This document shows positions 29,807 to 50,800 of a DNA stretch of 64,000 nucleotides, piece by piece. A model generated the notes under the pieces. It was not told where the DNA came from. It did not search any database and was given only the letters and a program-made list of their open reading frames with translations. Each line of letters begins with the position of its first letter. Positions within the stretch are counted from its first letter, which is position 1. Location: the NCBI GenBank assembly GCA_043821285.1, contig JBDRCZ010000017.1:15947-79946 (forward strand). The letters are read 5' to 3'. Position numbers and translations under genes: made by a program. Origin of the DNA: Candidatus Omnitrophota bacterium. GTDB lineage: Bacteria > Omnitrophota > Gorgyraeia > B26-G9 > JBDRCZ01.

Positions 29807-29808
29807 AT

Positions 29809-32958: not shown

Positions 32959-33140
32959 ATTCGTTCTCGTATTGCGTTTTTTTATTGTCGTCTACTTGTT
33001 TTTATACTCAATACTCGATACACAATACACAATGCGTTGTTTAATCATTTCTCTCCGTGTTCTCTGCGGCTCTGTGTGATAAATTTTAGCTTTTATTTTC
33101 TGTCTTCTGAATTCTGATTTCTGTTTTCTGCTGTTAACTG

Positions 33141-36100
33141 TTAGATTGCTTGCTCTGCTATAAATATATTAGGTACTGTTATTTCTCCGGCACTTGGTAT
33201 ATCTTCAAGTAATGTGTCCGGTGCAAATACATTTTCATTAGCAGGATTGGCTCTTGTGGCTATATCTTTAGCGTTTATAACACGTTGTGAGCGTCTGTCC
33301 TTATGAGCACTAGTGTCATTCGTTTCCTTTTGTAATTTTGCAAGAAGAACCGGATTATCTTTTATTTCACGGTGATTTTTGACGTTGGGAAAAAAACCTG
33401 TTGTCAGTTTTCTTGCGGCGGTTAAATCATCAACAGTTTGAATAATCATTCCTAATTCACCATTTAAATCTTCGCTATGAACAACACCAGCTTCTAATCT
33501 TACCTGCATGCCTAATTCTGAAATCACTTCATTAACTTTGATTTCGATCGCTTTCAAAGTAGCGGCAATTTTTTCCGAAGTAATTATCCCATCATCTTCT
33601 CTATAAGCTCCTGCAAATTGATTATAAACATTGTTATTAATTGATAGAATTACATCATTTCCAACATTGTGGCCAAATACATCATTAATAACCTTAAATC
33701 CAAAATGCAATTGTGCAAATTGTGCATCTCCATTTAAGTCTGTTTCTCTGTAAAACTCTCTGTTGCCGCTTGCTCTTATGAAATCATTTATATTTATGGA
33801 TGTAGAACTAACTATATAATGTGCTGATAGTTTTATCAGTTGTACACGGTTATTTTCTCTTTTTATAACGAGGTAGAACTTATCAGGCCGTTCATGTACA
33901 ATACTGATTGAAACAGCAGATTTGCCGTCTAAAATGTTTTGAATGGTTTTGCCCAACTTATCTCTTTCTATTACCGGGTAAAACTTGTCTAAATCTTCTT
34001 TCGAAATACCCGCATCTATCATTTCCTGACGTATTCTTTCTCCTTCAACTCCTAATTGAAATTTTTTATCGTCAGCTATTTTAATCGGTGATTTTCTCTC
34101 TTCGCGCTCAGGATCTGGGCGTTCGGATAATCCTATTCCTACTAACTTGTTGGCATATTTAGTCCTGCGCTGGGTGTATTCCGCCTCATCTCTAGCAATT
34201 CTTAGTTGTTCCAATAGACTCATTTGGGAAATATTAGGTATATCACTTATTTTTACTGCTCCTACCGGGGCAAAGGGAACATAAACAGGAAAATAAATCT
34301 TACCATTAATATCAATGTCAAGACATTTAAGATTAGCGAGTATCTCGGATAGAACAGTGTTTTCATCCTCTTCTACATCTTTAGTGAACAGTATAAATGT
34401 TTCCTTAGAAGCCTTTTCTTCTTCTGGCGTTAAAAATACTGATTTTGTGACCGTAGTAATGTTTCTTTTTTTATTTTCTCTTAATTTTTCTATCAACGCA
34501 TCTCTGTTACTATCATTTATATTTTTTAGGATTGCAAAAACGTATTTTCCTTCAATCCGTTCTATGACCTTGCGTTGAATTTGTACGAGAAAGTGCTCAA
34601 TAACTTCTTTTGGCAACATAGGTGGTAACAAACCAACAACCTCATCACCACTAACATGATAAACTGTTCTACCTCTTTCTTCAATTTCTTTACGAGCTGC
34701 CTCAATTAATGTGTTAATTGCAAGTATATTCACATTTTCCCAGCCATATACATCATTTCTACCCCTTAGTTCGCTGATGTCAAAGAATATCACCCAAGCA
34801 TTGTCGTCGTGTCTACCTAAAAATACCACTGCTTCTTTTTCCCATTTTTGTGCATTTTCTGGATAGGCTTCATTAAGAAAGTTTCTTACGCGTGTTGTAT
34901 TATCAAATAAAGTGGTTAAATACATTATAAACTCTTGCAGTTCGTTATAGGGTTCGTCAGTATCTTTTCTACTTAAAAGAACATCTATCACCTTAGTAGC
35001 CGCGTCCCTAAATTGCTGATCATTAATATTTTGGTTAATAATTTTTCTCCACTTCTCACCTAAACGCTTTATTTCAGCCTTCAGAAACATTTCTATTGCT
35101 TCCTCATCTTCGCCTTGTTCTTTACACCTATCTACTTCTAATATTACTTTTTCTACATCTGCGCCCAACTCAAAAGCAAAAAATTCCCCATCTCGTTCCT
35201 GACTGGAATTTTCTCTTGGCAAAATGCTTGCCATACCTAAGCTAAATGCTGCGATTAAACCTGCGGTTCCTCCTCCCATCCCTGATTGAAGCATTGATGC
35301 TGCGGAAAATTCTGGTTGAGATGGGAAATAACCAAGTGCTCGCATTAATGTTCCAATAGATGCTGCTAAAAGCACGATGGATATTTTAGGTTTATTTCCA
35401 AACCATGCAACTAACCTCCTAATTAGCGTACCTAACCTGTTCTCATGGGAAGGACTTTTGTTTAATGCCCTCCAACCAGTTGGATGCATAAATGCTACAT
35501 TAGTTGCTTTGCGTCTACGATGAAGAAGTCCGCTTATATTTGCAGGAAATATTATTTTTCTGCTTATCCACTTTTTTACCTCATAAGCAATATATATTAA
35601 TGTTAAAATTATGCCCAAACCAGGTATTACCATACAATCGCTAATAAAATTATTCCACTGTTTAACACGAGCATAACCTTCTCTTACAGTAAAACTATCA
35701 ATAAAAAACTCTTCTCCCATCGGTGGCATGATACCAAACTTAGCAATAAAATCTGCCTGGTTTTTAAATGCTTCTGTTGTTTCTGGATTGATATCAAAAA
35801 AAGGAATAACTAATCGAGCAATGTTAAAAATCAACGTTACTGGGTTATGTTTTATAAGAAATTCCATTGGGTTTTTAGGCAAATTATCGACATGATGACT
35901 TAAACGCACTAATGTAACAGCGTATTCAAAAATTCCTCGCTTAGTAAAGAAATTTAATCCAATATTAGGATTACCCCATGTTCCATTCCATCTTGAACCA
36001 TAGACAATATCAAAATTGCTTTCACGGATAGGTGGATTATTTGTCATAAGAATTTGGTAAGTTTCGGGAGAAACTAATTTTATCAAAAATAGCGCTGGTC

Positions 36101-39100
36101 CAATATGTTCTGCTCCTTCAGTTCCATCTCTTCGCTCAATAAAATCGTCCAACATGCCCGCAGCTTTATATTCATTGTAAAGTTTAATTACGGCTGTATC
36201 GATTTCCTGAGCTCTTTTTCGTGCTGTTGATTCTATAAATGATCCCGTGTTTTCATCAATTTTTGATGCAAGTGGAGAGTTTTGAAATGTTTCAATTAGA
36301 TTATGGAATTCATTTAAAGCTATTTGTAATTCTCCATTATTTTCTTGTAATGATACAGGTTGTGGTAATTCATTAAGTTTTAAACTGTCAGCTGGTGTTG
36401 GCTGTACTAATCCACTTTTTCCAACTGGTTCTAAAGATACAATGTTTAATGGTGCAGCAATTCCGATTGGTGCTAATATGGTCTGTGATCCGATAGCGAG
36501 GATAGTGAGTAAAGGCAATACTACCTTACGTGCAAAAGAGAAGTTAACACTGTGTTTAAAACCCCAGCCAAAAATAGCTAATCCTATCAGTCCTATTGCC
36601 GCAATTACAGCACCTGGCAAACCAAAAAATAACCCTGCAAACCCAATTGCCATAATTAACCCATCGATTGAAAGTGCTGTGGTTCCATTAGGTAACCTAC
36701 GGCTGGAATTATTATCCGGCGCAGTAATCTCTACATTATCTCCATGATTAAACGTCTGTTCTAAGTCTTCTACGCTTCTGGGCAAGCCGTTAACTTTTAA
36801 CACCAACTCCCCAGACTGGAGCATTTTTTGTGTGGTTAGGATGGCTTTGCGATTACGATCATTATAATAAGAAATCTGTGAAGTAATAGTCTTAATAAAT
36901 AAATATGCCAGCAGATCATAGATATTTGTTGCGGGAATCTGTTCTGCTGATATCAGTTCTCTAATACCATCTTGTTGACTATTACTGGCTTCTTTAGTTA
37001 TTGTTAATTGGATTAATGCTTTTTGTTCTTCTTCTTGCAATTTTTGAGTTTGCTGAGTTATTTCATCCTCTAAAAGAGCTAATCCAGCCCTATGCTGCTC
37101 TAAGATATCTTTTTCAGGATCAAATTCCCCTTCAGCACAAATTATTAACCCATTTGGCATAATATAGTAGACTATATTGAGATAGCCATGTGTGCTTTTG
37201 CCGATCATCAGTGAGTTTTTATTATTTAGCCAACCTTCGTACCTTTCCTTATGAAGCATAATTTGTTGGCTATGTGTATAATATCTTAACGTTGCATTAA
37301 TAAAACCTTGCGCATCGGCTTCCTCTTCTTTACGATAAGTAAGTGTTGTTCCATGCCCAATGAAACCATTTTTATAATGTTCAGGTAAGTTCTTCCATTC
37401 TTTGTTCAAACCACTTTCAATCCTTTGATGCAGTGATTTGTTTCCAGGAGCCGGTATGACACGTTCTGGCTCTGATGCTAATATCTCAAAGCTCGTGAAG
37501 GCATAAAAAATATTTTCTCTATCTGTCGCAATACCCATGCGTGTTTGACCCAAATTATCAGTTACTACCTGCCAGGTTGTTAATCCTATTTCTCGAGTAT
37601 ATGCAATTAGCGCCAGTTCGTATATTTCTTCTGTTAATAGTCCATCATTTACCATCCGCACAAAAAGCTTAAGAAATTCGTTGCTGTGATATATAAACCC
37701 GACCAATATTACTAAAGAAATTTTTCTTAATCTTTCTGTTGCGTTCTCTTCCTTTTTGAGTTTACAATAGATTGCTTCTATTGCAGTAACACAATCACTT
37801 TTGTATTCTGAGCCTATTGGATCGTCTTCTAACAAGATATTCCCTAATATCTGAACCGCGTATTCTGTTCCAATATCACCTAAAAGGTTTTTAACAGCCC
37901 TTAGGCGTAAGTAAAGCGGGTTAGTTTTATCATTCAACGCATTTGTCACAAGTTTTTCTGCAGGTTCACCAATTCCTCTTATAATCTCCTCACCAAGCAA
38001 AAGTAAGTTGGTTAAGTTCATATTAATTATATATCTATTTGGTTGTTGAATTAATGTTCTCATTCGCTTAATACAAGATTCAATCACATGTGCTCCCAAT
38101 ATCTCTTTCCTGCCAATTTCAACTAAATAGTCCTTTAAAAGTTCTTTTCTTATGTTAGCAAGCTCATAAGCTGAATGAAAAAATAAAATTATTAAACTAT
38201 CAGTTATTTTATCAACCATTTGTTTAATAATATTGTTTTGGTTTTCTGCTCTGGGATTTATTTTTAATGCATTGGCAATTTCAGTTATAAACTGTCTATC
38301 TCTATCTGATAATTCATCCTGTTGAATTCTATTGTATAAGACGAATAAATATCTTATAAAATAATTGAGTACCTCAATAACAGTTCTAAGAAAATCTAGT
38401 TCAGTTTCGTTAAATACTTCTTTTTTTTCAAATTTTTCCTGTGTCATTTGCTCAAATATTTCTTTTATCAATATAACCACTCGTATTTCATTACGTTCTT
38501 TAAGTATGTTAATAAGTAAACGTCTTATCCTCAGGTCAGAAGATTGAAGCACGTATTCTCTTATGTGGGGAAATGCCCGCTCGACAATATTACCTAACAC
38601 CGAAGAGGCAATTGTAACACGTGTTCCGCGATATATTAATCCCTGTTCACTTAATTCTGTAACAGCAGATTGAAGATTATCTTCTGATTTTTTTGCAATC
38701 TCCGTCAAAATATCAATAATCACATCTTGTTTTTTTTCTCCATGATCAAGCAGGTGCCGGATAGCTTTTACGCCAAACCCTTTAACCAAAATATCTTTAA
38801 TATCAGATGTTATTTCACGATCTTCACTATGAGCTGATAAGGCATCTGTTAAAAGGTCCATTGCCGTTGCAATTGTATCTTCATCTCTATTAGCAAATTC
38901 ACCAAGTTCAGCCATATTATCAGTACGTGAAGCGCGATCTCTATACGTAGCTAACTTATTAATCACATCCTGTATGTAAGCTCTCGTTGTACTATTATAA
39001 CTATTTCTATTGCTAAAATGCTTTGTTGTATCTTCTCCCGGATTGCCCCAATCTTGTAAACTAGAAAAAGGTAACTTTAATCCACCTATTCCGGCAAATG

Positions 39101-39581
39101 TCAGTTTAGGGTTTATGCATTGCCAAAATAAATAAACTACCCCTGTTATCATTAACAATACATAAGGATTATTAAAATAACCATGAGGTATATTAGAAGA
39201 TAAGGAAATAATTATTTGCTTAAGTGGGTATAAGATTGTGCTTAGCGGTATTATATTGCTTATTACCAACACAGAAAATATTGCTAAAGCAGTTATACCG
39301 GCAATATAAGCTAATGTTCTGAATCTGTTTAAAAAGATTGGTGATTCTGTTGTAGGTTGTTTTGTTGTGATGGTAGCTGGGGCATGAGGTGTCATTTTTT
39401 CTCCTGAAATTATGAAAGCATGTTCCGTTACGGAATTAGCTATTTGCAATTCAGGGGCAAGGTGGGTGTGTAGACCTTTTAGATTGCCGCCGGCGGCCCA
39501 GGAAATGTCCAGGCATAAAAAGGCATTGATTAATATTATGGAAATTAGTCTAAAATAAATTTTACGTGTTAAATTATTCAT
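33141..39581 (-). CDS. Giant-family protein B (2146 aa): signal peptide, several TM clusters, HEAT/ARM-like repeats, two degenerate GGDEF-like nucleotide-cyclase palm domains, C-terminal IAEQAI
   Basis: N-terminus MNNLTRKIYFRLISIILINAFLCLDISWAAGGNLKGLHTHLAPEL. GGDEF-like 1: FFDISELRGRNDVYGWENVNILA...YHVSGDEVVGLLP. GGDEF-like 2: HFGFKVINDVFGHNVGNDVIL...AYREDDGIIT. TM clusters at about aa 85-165, 960-1010, 1290-1420. No terminator between B and A. Confidence 0.7.
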   Translation of the reverse strand: MNNLTRKIYFRLISIILINAFLCLDISWAAGGNLKGLHTHLAPELQIANSVTEHAFIISGEKMTPHAPATITTKQPTTESPIFLNRFRTLAYIAGITALAIFSVLVISNIIPLSTILYPLKQIIISLSSNIPHGYFNNPYVLLMITGVVYLFWQCINPKLTFAGIGGLKLPFSSLQDWGNPGEDTTKHFSNRNSYNSTTRAYIQDVINKLATYRDRASRTDNMAELGEFANRDEDTIATAMDLLTDALSAHSEDREITSDIKDILVKGFGVKAIRHLLDHGEKKQDVIIDILTEIAKKSEDNLQSAVTELSEQGLIYRGTRVTIASSVLGNIVERAFPHIREYVLQSSDLRIRRLLINILKERNEIRVVILIKEIFEQMTQEKFEKKEVFNETELDFLRTVIEVLNYFIRYLFVLYNRIQQDELSDRDRQFITEIANALKINPRAENQNNIIKQMVDKITDSLIILFFHSAYELANIRKELLKDYLVEIGRKEILGAHVIESCIKRMRTLIQQPNRYIINMNLTNLLLLGEEIIRGIGEPAEKLVTNALNDKTNPLYLRLRAVKNLLGDIGTEYAVQILGNILLEDDPIGSEYKSDCVTAIEAIYCKLKKEENATERLRKISLVILVGFIYHSNEFLKLFVRMVNDGLLTEEIYELALIAYTREIGLTTWQVVTDNLGQTRMGIATDRENIFYAFTSFEILASEPERVIPAPGNKSLHQRIESGLNKEWKNLPEHYKNGFIGHGTTLTYRKEEEADAQGFINATLRYYTHSQQIMLHKERYEGWLNNKNSLMIGKSTHGYLNIVYYIMPNGLIICAEGEFDPEKDILEQHRAGLALLEDEITQQTQKLQEEEQKALIQLTITKEASNSQQDGIRELISAEQIPATNIYDLLAYLFIKTITSQISYYNDRNRKAILTTQKMLQSGELVLKVNGLPRSVEDLEQTFNHGDNVEITAPDNNSSRRLPNGTTALSIDGLIMAIGFAGLFFGLPGAVIAAIGLIGLAIFGWGFKHSVNFSFARKVVLPLLTILAIGSQTILAPIGIAAPLNIVSLEPVGKSGLVQPTPADSLKLNELPQPVSLQENNGELQIALNEFHNLIETFQNSPLASKIDENTGSFIESTARKRAQEIDTAVIKLYNEYKAAGMLDDFIERRDGTEGAEHIGPALFLIKLVSPETYQILMTNNPPIRESNFDIVYGSRWNGTWGNPNIGLNFFTKRGIFEYAVTLVRLSHHVDNLPKNPMEFLIKHNPVTLIFNIARLVIPFFDINPETTEAFKNQADFIAKFGIMPPMGEEFFIDSFTVREGYARVKQWNNFISDCMVIPGLGIILTLIYIAYEVKKWISRKIIFPANISGLLHRRRKATNVAFMHPTGWRALNKSPSHENRLGTLIRRLVAWFGNKPKISIVLLAASIGTLMRALGYFPSQPEFSAASMLQSGMGGGTAGLIAAFSLGMASILPRENSSQERDGEFFAFELGADVEKVILEVDRCKEQGEDEEAIEMFLKAEIKRLGEKWRKIINQNINDQQFRDAATKVIDVLLSRKDTDEPYNELQEFIMYLTTLFDNTTRVRNFLNEAYPENAQKWEKEAVVFLGRHDDNAWVIFFDISELRGRNDVYGWENVNILAINTLIEAARKEIEERGRTVYHVSGDEVVGLLPPMLPKEVIEHFLVQIQRKVIERIEGKYVFAILKNINDSNRDALIEKLRENKKRNITTVTKSVFLTPEEEKASKETFILFTKDVEEDENTVLSEILANLKCLDIDINGKIYFPVYVPFAPVGAVKISDIPNISQMSLLEQLRIARDEAEYTQRRTKYANKLVGIGLSERPDPEREERKSPIKIADDKKFQLGVEGERIRQEMIDAGISKEDLDKFYPVIERDKLGKTIQNILDGKSAVSISIVHERPDKFYLVIKRENNRVQLIKLSAHYIVSSTSININDFIRASGNREFYRETDLNGDAQFAQLHFGFKVINDVFGHNVGNDVILSINNNVYNQFAGAYREDDGIITSEKIAATLKAIEIKVNEVISELGMQVRLEAGVVHSEDLNGELGMIIQTVDDLTAARKLTTGFFPNVKNHREIKDNPVLLAKLQKETNDTSAHKDRRSQRVINAKDIATRANPANENVFAPDTLLEDIPSAGEITVPNIFIAEQAI

Positions 39582-40047
39582 AAGTTAATAGCCTATCAGT
39601 TAATTCCAAATGTTCCGCCTATCAAACCGGCGGACAGGCAAATAATAAAATCCAAATGACAAATGAATCATTTAATATCTCAATCTAAAAATCAAAATGA
39701 TATATTAAAATTCAAATATTTTTCTCTTTGACAGGATTTACAGGATTAACATGATTTTTTATCCAGTTAATCCTGTCTATTTTCTTATTTTCTCTGTGAA
39801 CTTTGTGTTCTCTGTGGTTATAAATTTTTTTATTTTTTTTAATCGTAATACTCAATACATGCTACTCAATACGCATTACTTTTTATAGTGTGCTCTCTGT
39901 GGTTAAAATATTTTTTGTTTTTTTATCTACATAATCATCCGTATTCTACGCTCTCTTTTATATGCACTATTTTCATTACAATCATACATATTGTAACCGC
40001 TAATAATTACAATCTGTTAAATATATTTATAACAATTTTAATATATA
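39582..40047 (-). promoter_or_regulatory. Long conserved 5' leader of giant gene B (about 465 nt)
   Basis: Shares several blocks with the 59037-59553 leader of gene E: conserved stem-loop TCCGCC-GGTTTGATA-GGCGGA near the start codon, CTCTGTG(A/G)TGATAAATTTTT boxes (CACAGAG in RNA sense), ACTCAATAC heptamers, AATCCTGTCTAT box. Confidence 0.5.
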
Positions 40048-40054
40048 CAAGTAA

Positions 40055-40082
40055 AGTATACCATATTTTTCTGATTTTTCAA
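40055..40082 (-). promoter_or_regulatory. Near-consensus sigma70 promoter of giant gene B
   Basis: Minus sense TTGAAA-N16-TGgTATACT (extended -10). Same sequence context (GTATACCATAT...TTTCAAGG) as the gene E promoter. Confidence 0.5.
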
Positions 40083-40419
40083 GGATTTTGCTAAAAAAAT
40101 ATAGAAAATAACAGATTAAAAGATTCAGGTGATCACGGTTTTAAAACAGTATCAAGGCATTATTTATAACTTATTTATTTATAATATATTATAAAATAAT
40201 TATCGAATATGCCTACATGTTAATTATTCGTGAAATTCGTGTAATTTGTTGTTTAAAAATAAGCAGTTAAAGTTTTTCTTTGTGTGATAAATTTTATTTT
40301 TTACCGCAGAGAAAATCTAAAAGAAATCTCGTTCACAGATGTATGTAAGTTACATCCACTTTCTATTCTTAGTGCGTTACGTAAACGGTAAACTGCCTGC
40401 CTCCCGTTAGGGAGGTAAA

Positions 40420-40447
40420 CTAAAAAATTGCCATAGGCAATTTTTTA
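40420..40447 (-). terminator. Terminator of giant gene C overlapping its stop codon
   Basis: Minus sense GCAATTTAA-AAAATTGCC-TAT-GGCAATTTTTT: 10-bp A/T-flanked stem. The stop-codon region GGCAATTT can alternatively pair with AAATTGCC. Confidence 0.6.
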
Positions 40448-43400
40448 AATTGCCCGTTCAATTTCAAACAAATCTGCTATCTCTCTCTTCTCCAGTTTTG
40501 TATCTGATCCATTTATGCCTACCCTATAGCCAGTGTGTCTTTCTTGGGGAGCAACTATTAGAGAATAAAGAGCGTGTAGTAACAGCATATCAGAATCAGA
40601 AATATGAGGGTCTATATTTTTTGCTTCTAATATTGATTCATCATCGCTTATTATTTCTTGTATAATTGTTTTTACTATATCTCTATCTTCAGCTCTGCAT
40701 TTTTCATGAATTGCATTCAGACATTGTTCAAAAAATGGTCTGAGCATCATAAGCTGAACATTATCTTCTTGTGTATATGCATTGGCAACTGCTTTTGTAA
40801 CTGTTTCTAAAACAGTTTGCCGGTAATCTGGTCTTACCGTATAGATATTATCAAAAAAGATAAAAGTCCCGGCTGCGGCTTGTGGCATTATTGTCTTGTT
40901 TAGTATCTCATTAATAACATTTCGAGGAAAATATACTAAAATACTTAATAATTTATCTATTGTAGTATTACTTGGGGTTAAACCTTGCTGCTGGATCAAC
41001 TCTTGATATTTTCTTCCTATGATTCTATGCATAGATTCAAGACTTCTTCTATTTGCATTTATCATTAAATTATTTCCTTTAACTGCTGTAACTAAGTCCG
41101 TTAATTCGCTTCGTATCATTTCTCGTTCTTTCTCAAATACATCCGTATCTTCGTTCCTCTGAGATATAAATAACCCTAAAAATTCAAGTTCTAATGCTTT
41201 TTTAAAGGCATCTTCCGAAGTAAATGCGTTTAATCTAACAGTAATATTTTCTAACAACATTAGCTCAAAGCTGGTACCTTGACGAAAAATATGTTTTAGA
41301 AATTTTTCTGCATTAGTAAATTCGGGTGAAAAGATGATTTCTCCACTGACACCATCTACTGTTTTCTCCATCACTTCATTTATCAAATTACCTACTGAAT
41401 CTAAGTTGTGAAACTCGTTTAATCTATTTTCATCTTGTATAACAGCTCTTAAATAAACCTCCATTCTTAAAAGGTAATCAGCCAAAAAAACACCATCAAT
41501 TGCAAAACGTATATTTTCATTCGTATCTTGAGTTCTTGCAGTCAAGGCTTGATAAAGAAAATCATCTATATCGGTCAACATTCTATAAAAGATTTCCATT
41601 GCTGTTTCCTTATCCTGTTTTAGAGCAAGTTCGAGGACATTATTAACATTTGAAAAATCTCGTGAAATATACTCCTTAATTACATCACATAACGCATTGA
41701 ACAGTGGTTTTTTATCACGACGGTAAATAGCAAAACTTAGCCTAATAAATGCTGCTAATATCTCATGGGAATTAAATCCTGAATTTATTAAATAACTTTG
41801 CTCCTTTTCTATATAGATTGGTATAATTTTAGAAACGTCATATCCCGCAATAACTGTGTAAGCAACTGCAGCAAAAATAAGATTATGTGTTTCTGCATCA
41901 TGTTTAGGAATGTTTATTCGTTGTAAGATTTCTCCTAATACTTCTCCTGCCTCAGTAGTTCTCTCCTCTTTTCCTTCAATCTGCGCTTTTATTTTATTAG
42001 TAAAAAATTCAAAAACAAAATCAGGTTCTGCCTTAAGATACGCTTCTATTGTTTCCCAATCTGCTGCTAATAAATTACGCAGTTTTTGGATTTTATCTTG
42101 AACCACGATTAAGTTATTTCGTAGATTGCTTATTTTTTTCTGATTTTTTCTCGTTTGTTTTTGCTCTTTGTTTATGGTTTGCTGAATAGTTCTTTCATTG
42201 CTTTGGCGACGATTAAGTGCCTGCGTCCTTGTAATAACTCCTTCTAAGAGGATTGTTACTTCAGAGAGTTTTTCTCTACGCGCTTTTACTGCCGGGGGCA
42301 TATCTAAAAGTAGAGGTTCCCTTGTTGTCACTGGAGCCTGCCATGCTGGAAGTTCTTCAGATGCTACTTGCATAGCAGCAGCGCCTTGAAGGACCTGAGG
42401 ATATAATGAATGTTTTTGCATTGGGTCTTCAACTAACATAAGCTCACAACTTTGAGGCGGTTTGAGAGCATTAATTCTATTTTGGATAACTACTCCCAAT
42501 CCCCAAGCCCATTCTGCTTGACTTTTATATAAATCAACTAAGGCTTCAATATCCTCACTTTCGTTTATAATTGCGGTTATTCTCTCTACCAGAGGAGCCC
42601 GGCTGTTTCTGTTAGGATAGGTATTAAGCATTTGATATAATTCAGGTATATTACTTAAATCATTATAACCGAGTAATCTTTTTCTCAGTACCTCTGCTAT
42701 TACCCCCCTTATTTGCTTACATCCGTAGGTATATTTATTTATAGAATTATCTGTAAGTAAACGAAGCAGGTTTTCGATATCTAAGGAAAACACTTGCCTG
42801 ATAATACCGAAAATAATATATATTTCTACTTCAGAGTGAATTTTTTTACTAAGTAAATTAGCTAATGCAGCAAGTGCCTCGCCCCCCCATTTACTAACCA
42901 TCTCCTGAGCAATAGCTTGAGCTTGTGTTTTGTCATTATTTTCTGCTTGCTGACGTTTAAATCTATCGGAAATTGCGGTTAATCGTTCAATGCCATCTTC
43001 AATCGAAGAAACAGTTAGGTGTATTTCTGATATTTTTCCTTGAGAAGCAATACTATTACTTAATTGTGCGGCTGCTGCTTGCTTTGTTTTCTGGGGTAAC
43101 CTTGGATTTCGTGACCACTCTGAAAGCAAGCGATCATTTACTTCTGCTAATCTTTTTGCAGTGCTTAACGCCTTAATTCTATACCAAAGATAATTATTCC
43201 AGTATTCATCGTCCCATTCTTGGCTTAGATACACATCAACTAAGGCAACAATATCTTGATTATTTTTTATTATATGTTTCATCCTTCTTCTTGCCAGATC
43301 TTTAATGTCTTCGTTCGGACATAATGTTTCATTATTAATAACATAATATAATGCAGAAATACTTGTTACGTTTCGAGGAATGCTAACAGTTTTTATGATA

Positions 43401-46400
43401 ATTATGCTTTTAATCATACCTCTGGTAACTTCAGCTCCTTTAGTTTCTTGCTGATTCATCGCAGTATATAAATAAAATATTTCTGTAACAGACATTGAGT
43501 TAAGACAATTACCAAGTGCCGACATAGTTATTTCTATTGCTTCTTCATTAAGAAGATTCGTATCAATTTGCTCAGCAAATTGTTTAATAATTTCTAAAAA
43601 CTCATCTTTATCCTTTGTGTTATACATTTCTGTTATAATATTTTTAACTTCTTGAGGAGCGGATGCAATAAAGGCTTGTATTTCTTCGGGTGTCTGATAA
43701 TAATCAGCCAACTCTTTCTCCAGCTTTTCTATTTGTGACGCAATTGTCGTATCTAGTTCTGGTTTATTAATTCGCAGCCACTCTATTATTCTTTTTCTTA
43801 CTGTCCGATCTTGGATGCCAATCAATAATCCTAGTACATGCACTACCTCGTTTTCTAAACACATGTATTGTGACAAGATGTCGTTAAGTTCCGTATTCGC
43901 TGCATTGCTAAAGAATAGGTATATAGTACCAGCAATATGTTTTTGTATGCCCGTAAGTCTAAGGATTTTTTCACTCAAAATATTTCTTATGCTCGAACCC
44001 CAGCTTCTTTCTAAATATAATTCTACTGCTGTCTTTAAATTATCACATTCATTAACCAGTTCTCTTATTCTCATCCTTAGCAGTGCCCGGGTTCCTTCAT
44101 GGTACTCTCTATCATTGAGCAAATCTTGCAGTGGTTCGATACTAGCAATGCCTTGATATTCAGCAAGGCGCTGTTTGATCGCTTCTATTAATTGACTACT
44201 ATTGTCCCCATGATTTAACCTACGCAATAGTTCCTCTAAGGTGAGAGTTTTTATGGGGTCAAAATCTGCTAGTAGTTCTGCAAAAGTTACTTGATTATCA
44301 GAAGGCGCTGCAACTTCTCTTGTCGGGGGGGCATCCCTGTTGGTGTCGGCTCTTTGATTAGCGTTTCGCCATGCTGCTCTTAAGGCACGTGTATCTGACT
44401 GTGATGGTGGCTCTGGAAAATGTACCACCTGAGCTGCATTCGACGGAGCTGTTGTTCGTACAAACCTATCTGGAGGGGATAGTGATAGATCGAAAGCAGC
44501 TGCTAGTTTTTCTAATGAGTTTAGAGTCAAAGGGTTATTGTTTCCTGATGGAGGAACTGTATCTTTTGGTAAAGCAACTTCTGCTGTGTCAGTCCCTTCC
44601 TTTTCTGGTTGTCGCAAGTCACCTGATTGTAATGGTACGGTGTATGCTTGAGGGTTATTTTCTTTTTCCCTTTCCCTTTTCCTTTTCTTTCTTGCAATAG
44701 GAGGACTATCTGCTCTATATTGTTTACGTGCTTTCCTTTTCATTAATACAACTTTATCTTCTTCTTCATCATCATCATATTGGTCACTATCATCTATTGC
44801 ATTTATTAACTCCTCTATTATGAGCATTAAAGCAATCCGTATATTTTCTTCTGATAATTCACCCGAACCCTCTTGCATCAATTGCTCAATTTCTTCCTCT
44901 GACAAAGTTAAATCGTTTATAACACCAATGAGCTGTTCAATGATTTGACCATTCTCGTGTGCGCTTTCAATTATATTATCTATAGCATCTTTTAACGCTT
45001 CATGATATGTATCTTCATCAAGTAGTAAATAAGTTTTTACTAAAAAACTAAGATCTATTTCTAAAGCACTATTTCTCGTTGATCTTACGCCGGTACTACC
45101 AAGCAAGCATAGTAAACTAAATCCCCAAGCCAACCCCTTCCAAATAAAAAATGCCAGTGCATCTGGTCTTGCGGCAACAAAGTGTACTACTGGATATAAT
45201 AATCCTTCATGTCGTGCAAGAGAATTTATGATTGTAAATTCGATGTAGTCGATAATAATGAGCATAGCTGATTTAGCACCAGTAACCGCCTTTTTAACTA
45301 ATTCCCAAACATTTGGTATAAATTGTATCTGCGGTTGTATATATAAAGGAAAGGTCATTATTAAGGAAAGACCTAATATAGCGTGTATTGGTAAATGCCC
45401 TAAGTTTACACTAACCGGGATGCCCGTGATATTACTGATTACCTCTAATATAAAAGGTGCAATCAATAATAAAAAGAGGCCATTTATTAATGGATGGGAA
45501 TTCAGGGTAACACTCTTACCAGCATTACTTTCTTGATAAAATTCTCTTACCGCTCTATTTGTTTTTATTAAAGCACGTAAATCAATAATGATATTTCCAT
45601 TTCTATCTTTACGAAGGTCATGTTTATTTTCCTTGTCAGATAAAAATATCTTATCATCTTCTTTCACAATTTTATATTCCACGTTACCAATCCAAATAAT
45701 ATCATTTTCCCTGAAAGTTACTTCTTTCCTTAAAATATCAATGATTAATTCCTTGCTGTTTGCTTCGTTACGCAGAAGAATAGTATTACCAGCTATTGCA
45801 TATTTTGTATTATCTATCATTCTGTCTTGATGCCACCATGCTATTCTGAGTTTGTAACCATCACCCTTTCCCTCAGTTTTTATTTTTTTTAGACCATCTG
45901 TTGGGAAAAATTCTAACCGTTCTCGTAAACGCTGGATTTTAGTATTGTATTGTCTTATATCTAAAATTCGCTTGTTATGAATGTTCTGAATTACAGCTAA
46001 TAACTCGTTGTCCTTAATACTTGCTAATAATGCGCCATAAAAGGCCAGACCTAAGCTATCTACTCTTAAAACTATTCTTTCTATTTCTGTGTGTTTGTTT
46101 TTGTTAAATAGAGTTGTTAAATAATTAGCCAATATCAGTACAAATTCCCCGCCCCACCACTTTATAACCTCAACCAATTGACCAAGAGACTGCGGTGTAA
46201 TATTTTGATGTTCATTCAGGAGATTTTCAATAATTTGTAATACTGCAGAAACTGAATATACACCAAATTGTTCGGCCAAAGCTTTGATTATTGCCAATCT
46301 TTGCGTTTCATCAAAATTATTAAGATTAGCTTCTTTTTCTTTCATCATCTTAATATAATTTTCGGCTGAATCCCAATCTTGAGTAGACTTATTAGTATCC

Positions 46401-47536
46401 CAATACTGTACTGGTTTGCGATACACTGCTTTTGCTGCTACTAATATATTTTTTTCTTTCTCTGTAAGTGCGGTGTCATCATTTGTCCATATCCTAATCA
46501 TTCCGTGTCTTGGTGCTGTTATATAAAATGAAATTTTTGACGCAAGAAACTCTTCCCATTCTTCTGGAGAAGGCACAGTTGATAAATCAGCACGTAAACG
46601 TATAAAACGGTTATAGTTTTTATTTTCGTTATTAATTATGTCTGCCGGAAGCAGCCGCCGGCCAACATGAATTTCTATATTAGAGTTTTCTGGTATTGGT
46701 TGGGTATAACGGCTTCGATCAGGGGTTGAAACATTCCAGTAGTTTTGTGTTGATATACCAAATCTCAAAGATTCGTTATCTATTTTTATGCTCTCGGGAG
46801 CAAAAAACATCATCATAATTGCATGCGCAGGTAAACGTATTGCATCAATCCAGTAGTGAATTCCTTTACGATAACTATACTCAAGGATAATTTTAATACC
46901 ACGTTCAAACAGAACTTTTAATCCGGGTAAAAAGGCAATATTATTAAATACGCTGTTGGTATTTAATCTAAAGACTTCCATATCCCTGGGGACAGTAAGC
47001 ACTATTCGCGGAGACGCACCTTTAATATCTATTTTTCCATAAGTAGTAATTTCACTTTGCAAATCACGCGCCAACCCAAGCAAACTTAGAAAGTCAATTT
47101 CTTTTAGAACCGGGGGTATTCTTTCAACCGTCTCATCATCTGGACAAGGTATTTCTGGAATTTCCCTAATATTTAATTGATTGTTTTTTTTAGAAATTAC
47201 ATAAGAACGTTGTTTACCAGCTGCGCCTGTTGTTACAAACAATACTATCGAACCATCATTCGCAAATCTTTTCTCGCATGCATCAAACTCAAACTTATCT
47301 TTAATATAACTTACGCCAACATGTCCTTCTGCCCAAGTATATGCATCACTTATTTTTTTGTAAAGCATAATATTTTCTGCAAATAGAGGGTCATTTACTT
47401 CCAAAGGCGGGGCAAGATGGGTATGTAGACCTTTTAGATTGCCGCCGGCGGCCCATGAGATGTCTAAGCATAGAAAGGCATTGATTAATATTATGGAAAT
47501 TAGTCTAAAACAAATTGTACGTGTTAAATTATTCAT
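40445..47536 (-). CDS. Giant-family protein C (2363 aa): signal peptide, TM cluster, poly-acidic/poly-basic linker, helical-repeat C-terminal module paralogous to F, C-terminal FEIERAI
   Basis: N-terminus MNNLTRTICFRLISIILINAFLCLDISWAAGGNLKGLHTHLAPPL. DDSDQYDDDEEEDK ... RKKRKREREKE. C-terminal 700 aa align clearly with gene F, e.g. LIFAAVAYTVIAGYDVSKIIPIYIEKEQSYLIN versus LFAVIVYTFIAGGDVSKIILIYIEKEISYLIN. Confidence 0.7.
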   Translation of the reverse strand: MNNLTRTICFRLISIILINAFLCLDISWAAGGNLKGLHTHLAPPLEVNDPLFAENIMLYKKISDAYTWAEGHVGVSYIKDKFEFDACEKRFANDGSIVLFVTTGAAGKQRSYVISKKNNQLNIREIPEIPCPDDETVERIPPVLKEIDFLSLLGLARDLQSEITTYGKIDIKGASPRIVLTVPRDMEVFRLNTNSVFNNIAFLPGLKVLFERGIKIILEYSYRKGIHYWIDAIRLPAHAIMMMFFAPESIKIDNESLRFGISTQNYWNVSTPDRSRYTQPIPENSNIEIHVGRRLLPADIINNENKNYNRFIRLRADLSTVPSPEEWEEFLASKISFYITAPRHGMIRIWTNDDTALTEKEKNILVAAKAVYRKPVQYWDTNKSTQDWDSAENYIKMMKEKEANLNNFDETQRLAIIKALAEQFGVYSVSAVLQIIENLLNEHQNITPQSLGQLVEVIKWWGGEFVLILANYLTTLFNKNKHTEIERIVLRVDSLGLAFYGALLASIKDNELLAVIQNIHNKRILDIRQYNTKIQRLRERLEFFPTDGLKKIKTEGKGDGYKLRIAWWHQDRMIDNTKYAIAGNTILLRNEANSKELIIDILRKEVTFRENDIIWIGNVEYKIVKEDDKIFLSDKENKHDLRKDRNGNIIIDLRALIKTNRAVREFYQESNAGKSVTLNSHPLINGLFLLLIAPFILEVISNITGIPVSVNLGHLPIHAILGLSLIMTFPLYIQPQIQFIPNVWELVKKAVTGAKSAMLIIIDYIEFTIINSLARHEGLLYPVVHFVAARPDALAFFIWKGLAWGFSLLCLLGSTGVRSTRNSALEIDLSFLVKTYLLLDEDTYHEALKDAIDNIIESAHENGQIIEQLIGVINDLTLSEEEIEQLMQEGSGELSEENIRIALMLIIEELINAIDDSDQYDDDEEEDKVVLMKRKARKQYRADSPPIARKKRKREREKENNPQAYTVPLQSGDLRQPEKEGTDTAEVALPKDTVPPSGNNNPLTLNSLEKLAAAFDLSLSPPDRFVRTTAPSNAAQVVHFPEPPSQSDTRALRAAWRNANQRADTNRDAPPTREVAAPSDNQVTFAELLADFDPIKTLTLEELLRRLNHGDNSSQLIEAIKQRLAEYQGIASIEPLQDLLNDREYHEGTRALLRMRIRELVNECDNLKTAVELYLERSWGSSIRNILSEKILRLTGIQKHIAGTIYLFFSNAANTELNDILSQYMCLENEVVHVLGLLIGIQDRTVRKRIIEWLRINKPELDTTIASQIEKLEKELADYYQTPEEIQAFIASAPQEVKNIITEMYNTKDKDEFLEIIKQFAEQIDTNLLNEEAIEITMSALGNCLNSMSVTEIFYLYTAMNQQETKGAEVTRGMIKSIIIIKTVSIPRNVTSISALYYVINNETLCPNEDIKDLARRRMKHIIKNNQDIVALVDVYLSQEWDDEYWNNYLWYRIKALSTAKRLAEVNDRLLSEWSRNPRLPQKTKQAAAAQLSNSIASQGKISEIHLTVSSIEDGIERLTAISDRFKRQQAENNDKTQAQAIAQEMVSKWGGEALAALANLLSKKIHSEVEIYIIFGIIRQVFSLDIENLLRLLTDNSINKYTYGCKQIRGVIAEVLRKRLLGYNDLSNIPELYQMLNTYPNRNSRAPLVERITAIINESEDIEALVDLYKSQAEWAWGLGVVIQNRINALKPPQSCELMLVEDPMQKHSLYPQVLQGAAAMQVASEELPAWQAPVTTREPLLLDMPPAVKARREKLSEVTILLEGVITRTQALNRRQSNERTIQQTINKEQKQTRKNQKKISNLRNNLIVVQDKIQKLRNLLAADWETIEAYLKAEPDFVFEFFTNKIKAQIEGKEERTTEAGEVLGEILQRINIPKHDAETHNLIFAAVAYTVIAGYDVSKIIPIYIEKEQSYLINSGFNSHEILAAFIRLSFAIYRRDKKPLFNALCDVIKEYISRDFSNVNNVLELALKQDKETAMEIFYRMLTDIDDFLYQALTARTQDTNENIRFAIDGVFLADYLLRMEVYLRAVIQDENRLNEFHNLDSVGNLINEVMEKTVDGVSGEIIFSPEFTNAEKFLKHIFRQGTSFELMLLENITVRLNAFTSEDAFKKALELEFLGLFISQRNEDTDVFEKEREMIRSELTDLVTAVKGNNLMINANRRSLESMHRIIGRKYQELIQQQGLTPSNTTIDKLLSILVYFPRNVINEILNKTIMPQAAAGTFIFFDNIYTVRPDYRQTVLETVTKAVANAYTQEDNVQLMMLRPFFEQCLNAIHEKCRAEDRDIVKTIIQEIISDDESILEAKNIDPHISDSDMLLLHALYSLIVAPQERHTGYRVGINGSDTKLEKREIADLFEIERAI

Positions 47537-47853
47537 ATGTTAATACCCTGTTAGTTAATTCCAAATGTTCTAATTCAAGATTTAAAAATTCCAAGATTCC
47601 AGATTCTAAAATTATAAAATTCCCCGCTACAAGGTCGAAGATCCGCCATCGTATTAGTGAAGAACGCTGGCGAACAGGCAAATTCTCTAACCTTCGGCAA
47701 GTAAAACGTTTTGAATCGTTAAATCTTAAAATATTCAAATTTTGGAATTGTTTGTTTTATTCTTCTGTCTTCTATTCTCTACCTTCTGTTTTCTGCTTTC
47801 AATCAGCTGTATCAGTAAACGGTAAACTGCCTGCCTTCCATTAGGGAGGTAAA

Positions 47854-47881
47854 CTAAAAAATTGCCGCAGCAATTTTTTAG
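47854..47881 (-). terminator. Terminator of giant gene D overlapping its stop codon
   Basis: AAAAAATTGC-CGCA-GCAATTTTTT hairpin; minus sense ...GCAATCTAA AAAATTGCTGCGGCAATTTTTTAG. Confidence 0.6.
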
Positions 47882-50800
47882 ATTGCTTGTTCTACTGCCA
47901 ACATTTCATTCCACTCTAACTCTGTAAGTGCAGGGGGTTGTTTAGGCATTGTTGTCAATTGTCCTGGGTTATTATCATGAGGATCCAGTCTTTGCTGCTC
48001 TACAATCTTTATTGCTGCTTCAATAATCGCTGCAGTGTCCATCTTATGTGCACGGTATAATATCTCGTGACTTCTTGCGGATTGTCCCCAACCTTGGATT
48101 CCTAACGAAGTTACAGTTGAACCAGTTGTAAGCAGAGATGAAGTTACTACCTTACTTACTGCTCCGCTTAATATTTTTGGAGAAGCGTCTTGAACAGTAA
48201 TTATTGGCACTCCCCGTTCAAGAAGAGGTGGTAAAGCTTCATCGATTAAATCCAATCTGGTCAAATTTATTACTTTTGCGGTAATATCTTGACTTTCCAA
48301 TTGTTCGCTCGCGGCAATTGCAAATTCCACCATTGCTCCGGCAGCAATAATAATAATATCGCTATTTTGTCCGTTTTCTCTTGGATCTTTAATTACATAA
48401 GCACCTTGTTCTGGACTGGGATTTTCTCCTCTATTTAAAACTGGAACATTTTGACGGGTAAGCTGAAGATAAGAAGGTCCTTTACCATCTAATGCCCTGT
48501 GCATAGCAAAATCTACTGCTTCTTCAGCCTCACGGGCATCTGCAGGTATAAAACCAGTCATTTTTTGCAAAAAAGAAATATAGCGAATAACGCCAGCAAC
48601 GATTACTGACTGATGAGTAGAACCGTCTGGCCCAACGCCTAAGCCGGCATGACTTAACGCAACAATTACCGGTAGTTTTGCCCGGGCAATCACAATTATT
48701 TGACTAATCATTCGGTTAGCAAAACAATCAAAGGTTGCGATAACTGGTATCTTACCATATAATGCTAATCCAGCAGCAATTCCTGCCATTGCTTGTTCTC
48801 TTACTCCGGATGGAACGTATCTTCCATTGGTGTTATGACGAGAAAAAATGCCAAAGTCCCTAGCAAACCAATTCAGTCTTGTAGAACTGGCAATGTCCGC
48901 GCAGAAAGCAATAATCTTTTCGACGCGTTTTCCCCAGTCAAGCATCCTGTTACCAAAACCATCACGTGTAGCAAAATTCCTATTTGCTTGGTATCTAATT
49001 TCTGCCGGTGTTTGTAGCATTGTCATTTGAACCGGCTCTGGCTCTTGTGTTTGTTTAATGTTGCTATAAATAAGCAGATTGAATTCCCCAATCTTATAAG
49101 GAACCATTCCATTCAATGCTTCCATAATTGTTGTGGCCATGATGTGTTCATCAAAACCCCGGGTAATAATTAAAACAGGTTTTCCTGTATTATCCTTGTT
49201 TAGCTGTTCAAAGGTTTGACCTAAGATTTCAGCCTGTTCTTGATTATTATTAGCATTGAGCTCAATCACTCTCCAACCATAAGCTTGCCAAATATTAACT
49301 AATTCCGTGTTTGTCTCTGAAGCTTGAAGGACTAAGCAGAGATTATCTATGCCATTGTGTGCGGCGAATCTAGCTGTTTCTGCAAACTGACCTTCTCTTT
49401 CTTCTTTTTCCGTGGCTAAAGCAATAACTCTGCCAGATGCTGTATCCATTTTAGCTCCAAAAGCTATACCTGCGGCCAGAGAAAGACGCATACCCGCAGG
49501 GAATATTTCTTGAGGACTAAAATCTATTTTCATAAGCCCGTCCGTGGGTTTTTCTTTTCCATCAACTAATTCTTTTGCTACTTCTATTATATTTTCAATA
49601 TCCTTGTCACTCATGGACCAAACAACGGAACCTGCGGTTTTAGAAGATGAAGTTACAGTCCTGCTTACCGCATCACCTAAACATACTGGCAATCCATCAT
49701 AAATTGTAAGAATACGGCTTCCTGGCTCAATATACTCTAAGAGCTCACTTCCTGCACCTAATGAGTCTAATTGCGTAACATTTATGATCTTAGTCATCGT
49801 ACCTTGTGATTCTAACTCATTACTGACTTTTATGGTTTGATGAAGACTTTTACCTGAAGAAATAAGAATAACCCTCTTTTTTGCCGTGTCCCACCCTTCA
49901 GATTGACTTATAACATAGGCACCTTGCTCTGGCTGGGGATTTTCTCCTCTATCTATAACCGGAAGATCTGCAGAACTTAAACGAATATAAGAAGCAGTGT
50001 ACTCATCTGGGATATTAAGTGATGTAGGGGCTTTATTTGTTATTTTAGCCAATAATAATGCATTTTTTATTGCCATATCAGTCAACTCATTAGTTTCATT
50101 AGGATCCCCTGGTTCTAACGCAATTACATTATGCATCAGGTCCATAACTCCTGGGGTAAAACTTAACTCTTCAGATTCAGCCGCTAAAATAAACGGTACC
50201 CTTGCCTGAGCATTTATCCTTAATTGGTCTAACATTTTCATCGCATCATTTTCCGGCAGAAAGACAATCGGCAGCATACCCGAATAACCAAACCCAGCAG
50301 CAAAACTGGCTAAGTGCTGTTCTCTATCCTCAACTAAGAAACATCGCTCGATGAGTTTATTTCTTATATCTTCATCAGTAATCTGTGCAATAAATTCATC
50401 AATAAATCTTTGTTTAGAATCGGAATTATTAAAAATAAATACTATCCGTTCATCTTTTTCTGCCCACTGGAGTAGTCTATTTTTAAATGCAACAGATGGA
50501 GAGACTTCCTCATCCTGTGCATAGTTGGTTCTATCTGGTATTGTTGTCGTGTCTGTTTTTTGTAGAGTACTCTCTTTTGATAAATTGTTTTCTTCTTGTT
50601 CTGTCATTTGGTTATCTGAAATAAATCTATCTACATCTGTTGAAAATCCATAAAAATTCATTTGTTGACTAATATTTTCAATTGTGTTTTCTATTTGGGG
50701 GATAGCTTCAGATAGTTCTTTATCATTTAATGCTCTACCGTGAAACGCGGTTGGATCATCTTCCATAAAATCTACGCCTTTACCTTTTTTTGTCTTGGCA

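Follow-up and report, generated by a model that had tools for sequence, protein, structure and literature searches.

Stop codons embedded in terminator-like hairpins of an expanded Omnitrophota gene family and their probable origin from the codons of a conserved C-terminal tail

The 64,000-nucleotide (nt) stretch analyzed here (the window; positions 15,947 to 79,946 of contig JBDRCZ010000017.1, assembly GCA_043821285.1, from a “Candidatus Omnitrophota” bacterium) carries six genes, A to F, all on the minus strand, whose only common parts are an N-terminal signal peptide leader of ∼48 amino acids (aa) and a C-terminal [I/V]-E-[Q/R]-A-I tail. At the ends of four of these genes (C, D, E, and F), a hairpin begins with the stop codon TAA itself; it is built like a Rho-independent terminator, and its symmetry makes this anatomy bidirectional. 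With moderate confidence, we interpret this hairpin as part of a 3′-end cassette of an expanded Omnitrophota leader-plus-tail family, built from the tail codons and acting as a terminator or stabilizer of the transcript. Comparison across genomes shows that the tail is retained where codons, the stop codon, and the 3′ flank have changed, evidently through selection on the protein.

Hairpins at the stop codons

The original prediction that a terminator-like hairpin physically includes the stop and tail codons was borne out by the sequences and folds of C, D, E, and F, in which TAA lies in or abuts a structure composed of an A-tract, a stem of 8 to 10 bp, a loop of 3 or 4 nt, and a U-tract of 5 or 6 U. 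The elements at the six gene ends are as follows.

C tail codons, 40448 to 40462, minus strand: ATT GAA CGG GCA ATT (I-E-R-A-I)
C stop codon, 40445 to 40447, minus strand: TAA, paired within the extended stem
C arm 1, 40447 to 40454, minus strand: coding GGCAATTT, made up of the end of the Arg codon, the Ala and Ile codons, and the first stop base; identical to the start of arm 3
C arm 2, 40436 to 40444, minus strand: AAAATTGCC, the 5′ arm of the hairpin, which pairs with arm 1 or arm 3
C loop, 40433 to 40435, minus strand: TAT (paralog loops are TAT, TGCG, ATC, and TAT in C, D, E, and F)
C arm 3 and U-tract, 40422 to 40432, minus strand: GGCAATTTTTT
D gene end, minus strand: tail V-E-Q-A-I, 47881 to 47895; stop codon, 47878 to 47880; hairpin TAAAAAATTGC-TGCG-GCAATTTTTTA, 47855 to 47880
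E gene end, 55274 to 55328, minus strand: tail codons, 55314 to 55328; stop codon, 55311 to 55313; hairpin AAAAATTGCC-ATC-GGCAATTTTT, 55288 to 55310; GTTTAC heptads
F gene end, minus strand: tail codons, 59962 to 59976; stop codon, 59959 to 59961; hairpin TAAAAAGTTGCC-TAT-GGCAACTTTTTG, 59935 to 59961, with an A-U to G-C double change
A gene end, minus strand: tail I-E-Q-A-I, 29836 to 29850; stop codon, 29833 to 29835; unrelated 13-bp hairpin, 29807 to 29836
B gene end, 33141 to 33158, minus strand: tail codons (A-E-Q-A-I) and stop codon; TAA joined straight to CAGTTAAC and CAGAAAA heptads

Pairing of the U-tract with the A-tract, to which the AA of UAA belongs, puts the stop codon inside the stem in C, D, and F. 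Downstream of TAA, gene D reads AAAATTGC-TGCG-GCAATTTTTT, giving an 8-bp stem past the stop with a 4-nt loop rather than the AAAAATTGCC stem first assigned to it, and gene F reads AAAGTTGCC-TAT-GGCAACTTTTT. Folding energies range from −7.0 to −10.0 kcal/mol for the 30 nt past the stop and from −8.8 to −11.9 kcal/mol when folding begins at the stop codon. The 3′ arm (GGCAAT..) repeats the Ala-Ile codons, so that the 5′ arm has two possible partners.

The dimensions of Rho-independent terminators (a 5- to 14-bp stem, a 3- to 8-nt loop, and a U-tract) are found in C, D, E, and F, but not in A. The hairpin of gene A (AUAAUUUUUUGUC-UUAU-GACAAAAAAUUAU, −11.6 kcal/mol) had been described as an unrelated terminator. 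Unrelated it is, but the U-tract precedes the stem and the A-tract follows it, so that a 3′ U-tract is missing and neither strand reads as a canonical terminator; the gene keeps IEQAI. Gene B, as predicted, lacks a terminator, in that hairpins of ≥6 bp are absent up to 80 nt from its stop codon. A hairpin of the same reversed polarity as that of gene A, UAUUUUUUGC-GGA-GCAAAAAAUA (28463 to 28485, minus strand), adjoins, on the upstream side, the strong Shine-Dalgarno sequence and ATG of a small gene, and hairpins with a 5′ U-tract and a 3′ A-tract may therefore be a separate class rather than terminators.

Hairpins are more frequent in the window than expected by chance. Perfect hairpins of ≥8 bp number 35, against a mean of 6.2 in composition-matched shuffles (5.6-fold), and 14 of the 21 distinct hairpins lie outside the bodies of open reading frames (ORFs) although 84% of the window is coding; seven are on or at a stop codon. 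Placement at gene ends above chance, as expected of terminators, is thus a property of the window's hairpins. The three-arm layout occurs only at the ends of family genes and in one AT-only palindrome in an intergenic region (IGR; 59520 to 59541), compared with 0.2 occurrences per window in the shuffles. Rfam gave no match at E-values up to 1 over positions 39500 to 40600 and, across the whole window, only a tRNA, and the GAGGCAGG motif, common to other loci, was not enriched.

An unrelated dnaE-like gene (7529 to 10969, plus strand) also ends in a stop-embedded A-tract/stem/U-tract hairpin (10966 to 10997), TAAAAAATTTCT-TTTACG-AGAAATTTTTTAT, also written ATAAAAAATTTCT-TTTACG-AGAAATTTTTTAT. 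Its energy of −9.6 kcal/mol matches the range of the C to F hairpins, in a genome with 35% G+C. Stop-embedded AT-rich hairpins are therefore a habit of this genome and not specific to the family. Behind the MscS gene lies a canonical, G+C-rich terminator of the textbook kind.

Selection on the C-terminal tail

The tail has the consensus L-x-[L/F]-[I/V]-E-Q-A-I-COOH. Conservation fades ∼9 residues from the C terminus, and the motif is the free end itself. In the general form PHI-x-x-[A/S]-I-COOH, the final [A/S]-I closes 39 of the 62 leader-bearing protein clusters, the exceptions being mostly short or partial, while none of ∼45 non-family ORFs in the window and four comparison loci ends in the tail. 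Variants within the window's own metagenome-assembled genome (MAG) include VERAI, IEASI, VQEAI, IEMAI, and IDQAI.

The comparison loci lie on four independent Omnitrophota contigs (L001, L002, L003/L004, and L005), and 15 tail-bearing genes were found in L001, L002, L003, and L005: 11 with a significant match to the leader profile, two with diverged leaders, and two giant genes that start off the locus. The penultimate residue of these relatives is encoded by GCG, GCT, GCC, GCA, TCC, TCA, or TCG and the final Ile by ATT, ATC, or ATA; TAA, TAG, and TGA are all used as stop codons. Their 3′ flanks are unrelated, and AAAATTGCC/GGCAATTTT occurs in none of the 15; the L005 paralogs have a common hairpin of their own, CTTCCGC-CCCCGGA-GCGGAAG, located 8 to 15 nt past the stop. 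The proposed check of whether relatives keep the tail where the terminator differs therefore has a clear outcome over these 15 genes and four contigs: the tail is kept and the hairpin is absent. Since the relatives retain the tail with other codons, stops, and flanks and without the hairpin, the peptide itself is evidently under protein-level selection, as had been proposed.

It had also been suggested that pairing in the RNA enforces conservation of EQAI, because the codons must pair with the terminator arm, or the reverse. The first alternative is highly improbable. The Ala codon of the tail is GCA in all six window tails, though GCA accounts for only 41% of Ala codons, and three of the six use the rare Ile codon ATC; this uniformity would be expected under such a constraint, but it also fits common descent of the 3′ cassette, which would explain the codon bias. 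Genes A and B keep GAGCAAGCAAT[A/C]TAA without a hairpin, and in the 15 relatives no compensating hairpins on their own codons were seen. Within the same MAG, tails vary at positions −2 and −3 and include Ser-Ile (IEASI), which is unable to form arm 1. As judged from these sequences, RNA pairing does not enforce EQAI, whereas the reverse alternative stands: the hairpin looks copied from the tail.

Origin and predicted action of the hairpin

An exact DNA pattern covering tail and hairpin, GCAATYTAAAAARTTGCN{4,5}GCAAYTTTT, had no match in the genome and metagenome collections. Because the 3′ arm repeats GGCAAT(TT), the tail motif is ancient and phylum-wide, and the hairpin is confined to this genome, we infer that the hairpin arose from the tail's own codons, in this genome only, by a small inverted duplication or triplication through template switching. 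The start of arm 3 equals the last 6 to 8 coding bases, forming a copy/inverted copy/copy unit, which is the expected product of such events (PMC7202029, PMC13334657); the chance of an ancestral 8-mer match is estimated at ∼1e-4. A conserved coding end could thus seed its own terminator.

Pairing and its variation were compared among the four copies. In the terminator helix, 97.8% of cells are paired, against ≤63% when partners are slid, and variation is concentrated in the loop, not the stems. The mirrored substitution reported for gene F is real, an A-U to G-C double change (alignment columns 26/40), and it is the only compensatory pair in the helix. This count is reached by 134 of 500 shuffles of the four sequences, and template switching at a quasipalindrome copies one arm from the other and so produces mirrored changes without selection (PMC7202029). 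The covariation of the terminator helix is suggestive, and the original conclusion that the hairpin is selected went further than four paralogs with one compensatory pair permit. More generally, covariation among paralogous hairpins is weak evidence of selection because palindromes can homogenize themselves by mutation.

The hairpin is predicted from sequence and folding to end or stabilize the transcript. Termination would be suppressed by a ribosome that follows RNA polymerase closely and, on arriving at the stop codon, covers arms 1 and 2: the ribosome footprint extends ∼10 nt downstream of the A site, and in Escherichia coli, termination at tR2 fell from ∼90% to <10% after a stop codon had been moved to a position 5 bp ahead of the terminator and recovered when translation was uncoupled (PMC4824070). 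As the hairpin begins 0 nt past the stop codon, it would work mainly where polymerase has outrun the ribosome and leak when the two are close. A terminator starting at the stop codon is thus expected to sense the coupling of transcription and translation, which is relevant to genes of 6 to 7 kb. The hairpin would then be ordinary in kind though unusual in origin, and support for a regulatory role is weak.

Several observations weigh against this reading. The stems are AT-rich, with only 2 to 4 G-C pairs each, and the free U-tract is short once the A:U pairs have formed. A generic terminator scan was unenriched in the window (11 found versus 11.3 expected) and called the palindromes of C to F on the plus strand only, not on the gene strand, because full extension of the stem consumes the T-tract. 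In gene C, the alternative helix described below is the more probable fold, which is awkward for a simple terminator. With four copies in one genome, selection on pairing is inseparable from recent descent or palindrome homogenization. The synonymous base before GCA, which covaries with arm 2, and the U.G pair of gene F hint that the alternative helix, or else the palindrome in the DNA, is not fully neutral.

Alternative helix and competing explanations

The predicted alternative helix between the coding GGCAAT(TT) and the 5′ arm of the hairpin was recovered by folding in all four genes. The arm 1:arm 2 helix GGCAAUUU:AAAUUGCC has an energy of −9.1 kcal/mol in C and F (in F via a U.G pair), compared with −7.0 kcal/mol for GGCAAU:AUUGCC in E and −4.4 kcal/mol for AGCAAU:AUUGCU in D. 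In each of the four genes, this helix is the local fold of lowest energy until arm 3 has been made. At equilibrium, its probability is 0.73 in C, <0.01 in D and E, and 0.014 in F, and the terminator helix has a probability of ≥0.986 in D, E, and F. Automatic alignment yields no compensatory pair in this helix; aligned by hand, D has AGCAAU/AUUGCU where the others have GGCAAU/AUUGCC. Genes C, E, and F have G directly before GCA, and D has A, as do A and B, which lack the hairpin; the position is synonymous in D, E, and F. This base tracks its partner in arm 2, G occurring with C (C, E, and F) and A with T (D), and forces at the nucleic acid level may thus shape this silent site, though not the amino acids. 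The arm 1:arm 2 helix is probably in the main a by-product of the origin of the hairpin, and it may weaken the terminator of gene C.

The same three arms could instead constitute a translation-sensing switch, a 3′-end attenuator in which a ribosome shortly before the stop masks arm 1 and frees the terminator, while in untranslated RNA, arm 1 pairs first with arm 2 as an antiterminator and polymerase reads into the next paralog. We consider this unlikely. The two helices are mutually exclusive, and the alternative one, paired in 90.3% of cells against ≤59% when slid, is kept in all four genes (in F by U.G and in D by A-U in place of the G-C of the others), is the fold formed before arm 3, and dominates at equilibrium in C, with the wobble base before GCA following arm 2. 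The near-complete dominance of the terminator in D, E, and F at equilibrium argues against such a switch, as do the lack of a formal compensatory pair and of conservation beyond this genome. Homogenization of a palindrome by template switching would give the same covariation, and a ribosome on the stop codon would cover arm 2 as well (PMC4824070), leaving a narrow window of ribosome positions. Hairpin-stimulated readthrough or −1 frameshifting was rejected on reading by eye: there is no in-frame X XXY YYZ heptamer, and the extensions (∼50 codons in C, 7 in D) are unconserved.

Less probable still is that the element acts as DNA, as a binding or recombination site at cassette borders, as a sequence resembling repetitive extragenic palindromes (REP) served by a Y1 transposase, or as a patch of homology for body exchange. 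The palindromes are perfect (9+3+9 to 12+3+12), an IS200-like Y1_Tnp gene lies nearby (27148 to 27954), Y1_Tnp genes also stand beside family genes in L002 and L003, and the D>C, C>B, and F>E intergenic units are homologous while the bodies are unrelated. The four copies are, however, all at family stop codons, with none elsewhere in the window or the collections; the flanking A- and T-tracts suit a terminator and not a REP; and the U.G pair of gene F in the alternative helix works in the sense RNA only. A REP element with its associated transposase (REP/RAYT) was likewise rejected, with only four copies, no matches in the collections, and a different 27-bp palindrome at the Y1_Tnp gene. The 3′ end of that gene (minus strand) falls within a perfect inverted repeat of 27 bp (27150 to 27206; 3-nt spacer); the last nine residues of the protein (...WGLSFEVI) are encoded by the 3′ arm, which extends as far as the T of the stop codon. 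The Y1_Tnp genes beside leader/tail genes are at 13283 to 13951 in L002 and at 8891 to 9529 in L003. The reading of the hairpin as a terminator or stabilizer derived from the tail codons remains the one we prefer.

The shared 3′ module and intergenic units

The hairpin is the first part of a larger 3′ module, the other parts of which are as follows.

C second hairpin, 40400 to 40415, minus strand: CCTCCC-TAAC-GGGAGG, without a U-tract, with arms like Shine-Dalgarno and anti-Shine-Dalgarno sequences; followed by CAGGCAG
C heptads, 40381 to 40393, minus strand: GTTTACC GTTTAC, the end of the common module in the 3′ untranslated region (UTR)
D second hairpin and GTTTAC heptads, 47815 to 47849, minus strand: hairpin at 47834 to 47849 with one mismatch

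The 65-nt module (hairpin 1, hairpin 2, and heptads) of D (47815 to 47879) is 89% identical to that of C (40381 to 40445). Genes C, D, E, and F have a common 3′ UTR of 65 to 75 nt that differs by simple indels: E lacks the second hairpin through a 27-nt deletion between AGTTTACC direct repeats, and F has extra GTTTAC heptads and a degenerate second hairpin (59902 to 59916, minus strand). The second hairpin lies 8 to 20 nt past the first, with one arm similar to an anti-Shine-Dalgarno sequence (CCUCCC) and the other to a Shine-Dalgarno sequence (GGGAGG), and there is no start codon behind it. The 3′ end of B, with TAA fused to CAGTTAAC, looks like the result of a loss of ∼49 nt that held both hairpins.

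The intergenic units (tail, 3′ module, 5′ UTR, and leader) are homologous between 39582 to 40444, 47537 to 47877, and 59037 to 59958, with identity of up to 89% at both ends, and the gene bodies that they separate are unrelated. The kinship of the 5′ and 3′ modules is discordant, the B 5′ module being closest to that of C and the C 3′ module closest to that of D, which suggests gene conversion or a cassette-like exchange of bodies.

Intergenic DNA in the window is built of blocks with a 7-nt period (CAGAAAA, GTATTGA/GTATTGC, CACAGAG, GTTTACC, and CACGAAT) that occur in both orientations and are common to several IGRs, e.g., at 33090 to 33135, 33000 to 33035, 39795 to 39900, 47770 to 47800, and 59330 to 59480, and also behind plus-strand genes at 3720 to 3760 and 7325 to 7365. 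They correspond to repeat families D4 to D8 and D13 to D17 of the repeat analysis of the window. Near-consensus promoters, TTGAAA-N16/17-(TG)GTATACT, are found at 40055 to 40082 and ∼59565 to 59593 (minus strand), only in the two long IGRs (C>B and F>E). The distance of ∼500 nt from them to the next start codon downstream implies either long 5′ UTRs or a transcript that is not annotated.

The leader and the gene family

The family genes of the window and the leader of gene C are as follows.

Gene A, 29833 to 32820, minus strand: 995 aa; leader from 32820
Gene B, 33141 to 39581, minus strand: 2,146 aa; NCBI MFH1776243.1, ABH952_01580; leader from 39581
Gene C, 40445 to 47536, minus strand: 2,363 aa; leader, unrelated body, and tail ...EIERAI
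C leader, 47384 to 47536, minus strand: first 51 codons, with a site of the signal peptidase I type, [A/S/T]-[W/Y/F]-A|
Gene D, 47878 to 53553, minus strand: 1,891 aa; transketolase N, pyrimidine-binding, and C-terminal domains between leader and tail
Gene E, 55311 to 59036, minus strand: 1,241 aa; S-adenosylmethionine (SAM) methyltransferase domain; leader from 59036
Gene F, 59959 to 64000, minus strand: >1,346 aa; 5′ end beyond the window

The ∼48-aa leader of C also opens A, B, D (to 53553), and E. Between leader and tail, the bodies of A to F are unrelated, except that C and F are 36% identical over 590 residues; across the family, bodies range from 0.15 to >6 thousand aa, are mutually unrelated, and in some cases contain enzyme domains. 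The E>D intergenic region contains an inserted DDE transposase gene (DDE_5/DDE_Tnp_1; 53922 to 54986) on the plus strand, opposite to the family genes.

Leader relatives were collected by an exhaustive HMMER profile scan, which yielded the 62 protein clusters; a word-indexed protein search with 5 and then 41 leader sequences returned only one or two short fragments, and leader-based scans of the genome and metagenome contig collections returned no relatives. The best 25 leader clusters, except P0023, are all from the window's own MAG (ABH952 locus tags) and, together with D and F, give at least 27 leader genes in this Omnitrophota genome. The other clusters come from further Omnitrophota MAGs, JGI metagenomes, and Logan assemblies.

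In A to F, the leader has the consensus M..R.I.FKL..IILINAFLCLDISWAAG.NLK.L.THLAPPL. A Sec signal pattern was read directly from 57 leaders: a K/R-rich start, a core of F-x-L-I-x-[A/S]-F-L-x-L-D, and then [A/S/T]-[W/Y/F]-A|. By eye, the leader thus has the basic n-region, the h-region of 15 to 20 residues, and the small residues at −3/−1 of a Sec signal peptide. AlphaFold2 placed a helix at residues 3 to 28 of P0023, a minimal member (152 aa), with a predicted local distance difference test (pLDDT) score of about 72; the structure model as a whole (pLDDT of 43.5) was uninformative about contact between the N- and C-terminal motifs. No Pfam or NCBIfam model covers the first 60 or last 60 residues. 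Long family members contain no internal relics of leader or tail, and the proposals that giant genes are fusions of family genes, or that the tail-IGR-leader segment is a gene-splitting insert, are therefore unsupported.

Giant proteins carry versions of the tail. Tail-like ends (LINNAI, LIGNSI, and LLEQAA) close three of the four giant genes whose ends are visible (L001, L002, and L003), and giants of 8 to 9 thousand aa among the genes of the loci terminate in LINNAI or LIGNSI. In L001 to L005, family genes lie directly downstream of giant genes of 7 to 9 thousand aa, that of L005 carrying SecA_DEAD. A PilZ protein of ∼120 aa is encoded between the giant and family genes (L001, 3657 to 4019; L002, 9207 to 9566; L003, 8411 to 8770; and L005, 887 to 1249), so that the conserved order in other Omnitrophota is giant gene, PilZ, and leader/tail genes, followed in L001, L003, and L005 by an MFS transporter and a GH2-like glycosidase; the window has instead a PilZ-T2SSE ATPase fusion at 11321 to 12718.

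A short, phylum-wide C-terminal motif that is always paired with one leader on unrelated large proteins bears the marks of a sorting or recognition system not yet described. A possible, though doubtful, further reading is that leader and tail form a two-ended, Omnitrophota-specific address label for a dedicated route of export, surface attachment, or delivery to prey, in which the free C terminus would be recognized after Sec, and that the tail codons were co-opted into a three-arm hairpin with ribosome-dependent termination. If this were so, the label would mark dozens of proteins per genome, from 150 aa to giants of several thousand aa, with cargo that includes transketolase, phosphoglycerate kinase, a PPDK-like enzyme, and methyltransferases. 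Cofactor-dependent enzymes that are normally cytoplasmic stand behind a cleavable-looking signal peptide in D (transketolase, 47878 to 53553) and in the family proteins P0022, P0053, and P0063, the whole set comprising transketolase, phosphoglycerate kinase, PPDK-like, and ROK kinase/PHP domains; either their topology or their site of action (a prey cell?) would be unusual. The leader and tail provide a simple sequence rule by which the cargo of such a system could be listed. In a phylum of ultrasmall, probably predatory bacteria with unexplained giant proteins, this uncurated bracket (at least 27 genes here and giants elsewhere) could be of more interest than the RNA element.

Comparison with known systems

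Bidirectional terminators combine an upstream A-tract and a downstream U-tract around a symmetric stem and are readable on both strands. The hairpins of C to F share this A-tract/stem/U-tract palindrome, but the neighboring genes are codirectional rather than convergent, and the second direction would stop only antisense transcription. Compared with the trp and his attenuators, they have the same three arms, of which the middle one pairs either way and one is translated, and ribosome position could decide between the two states; here, in contrast, the arms lie at the 3′ end of a 6- to 7-kb gene, and both a leader peptide and regulatory codons are absent. As in attenuators, the two helices exclude each other through a common arm, but the alternative helix is minor in three of the four genes.

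Functional motifs at the extreme C terminus are known from type I-secreted metalloproteases, ligands of PDZ domains and tail-specific proteases, ClpX C-motif-2 (MuA ...KKAI), and eukaryotic PTS1. The tail resembles them in comprising 5 to 8 residues at the free end of unrelated proteins, with a small and a hydrophobic residue last and an acidic residue before. Unlike the motifs of type I substrates and cytosolic degrons, it invariably occurs together with an N-terminal Sec signal that looks cleavable. A type I route is not indicated: all members have a leader of the Sec type, complete with the [A/S/T]-[W/Y/F]-A site, and no ABC/MFP transporter genes occur in the window or the comparison loci. 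Among curated sorting domains in Pfam and NCBIfam (T9SS CTD, PEP-CTERM, LPXTG, GlyGly-CTERM, and similar), the tail matches none.

The hairpins share with Rho-independent and ribosome-repressed terminators (Li et al. 2016, PMC4824070) a stem-loop followed by a U-tract at the gene end, adjacent to the stop codon and predicted to be open to occlusion by the ribosome. They differ in that the stems are AT-rich, the stop codon is paired, and the 3′ arm repeats the last sense codons. With quasipalindrome template switching and inverted triplication (PMC7202029, PMC13334657) they have in common the copy/inverted copy/copy arrangement and concerted changes in the arms, the mechanism here being deduced from the pattern and not from observed intermediates. 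Lastly, two studies of Omnitrophota giant proteins (West-Roberts et al. 2023, bioRxiv 10.1101/2023.11.21.568195; 2026, bioRxiv 10.64898/2026.06.07.730766) yielded, by term search, no shared leader or C-terminal motif; the proteins that they describe are, like those of the leader-plus-tail family, large secreted or membrane proteins of the same phylum in which domains of normally cytoplasmic enzymes are embedded.

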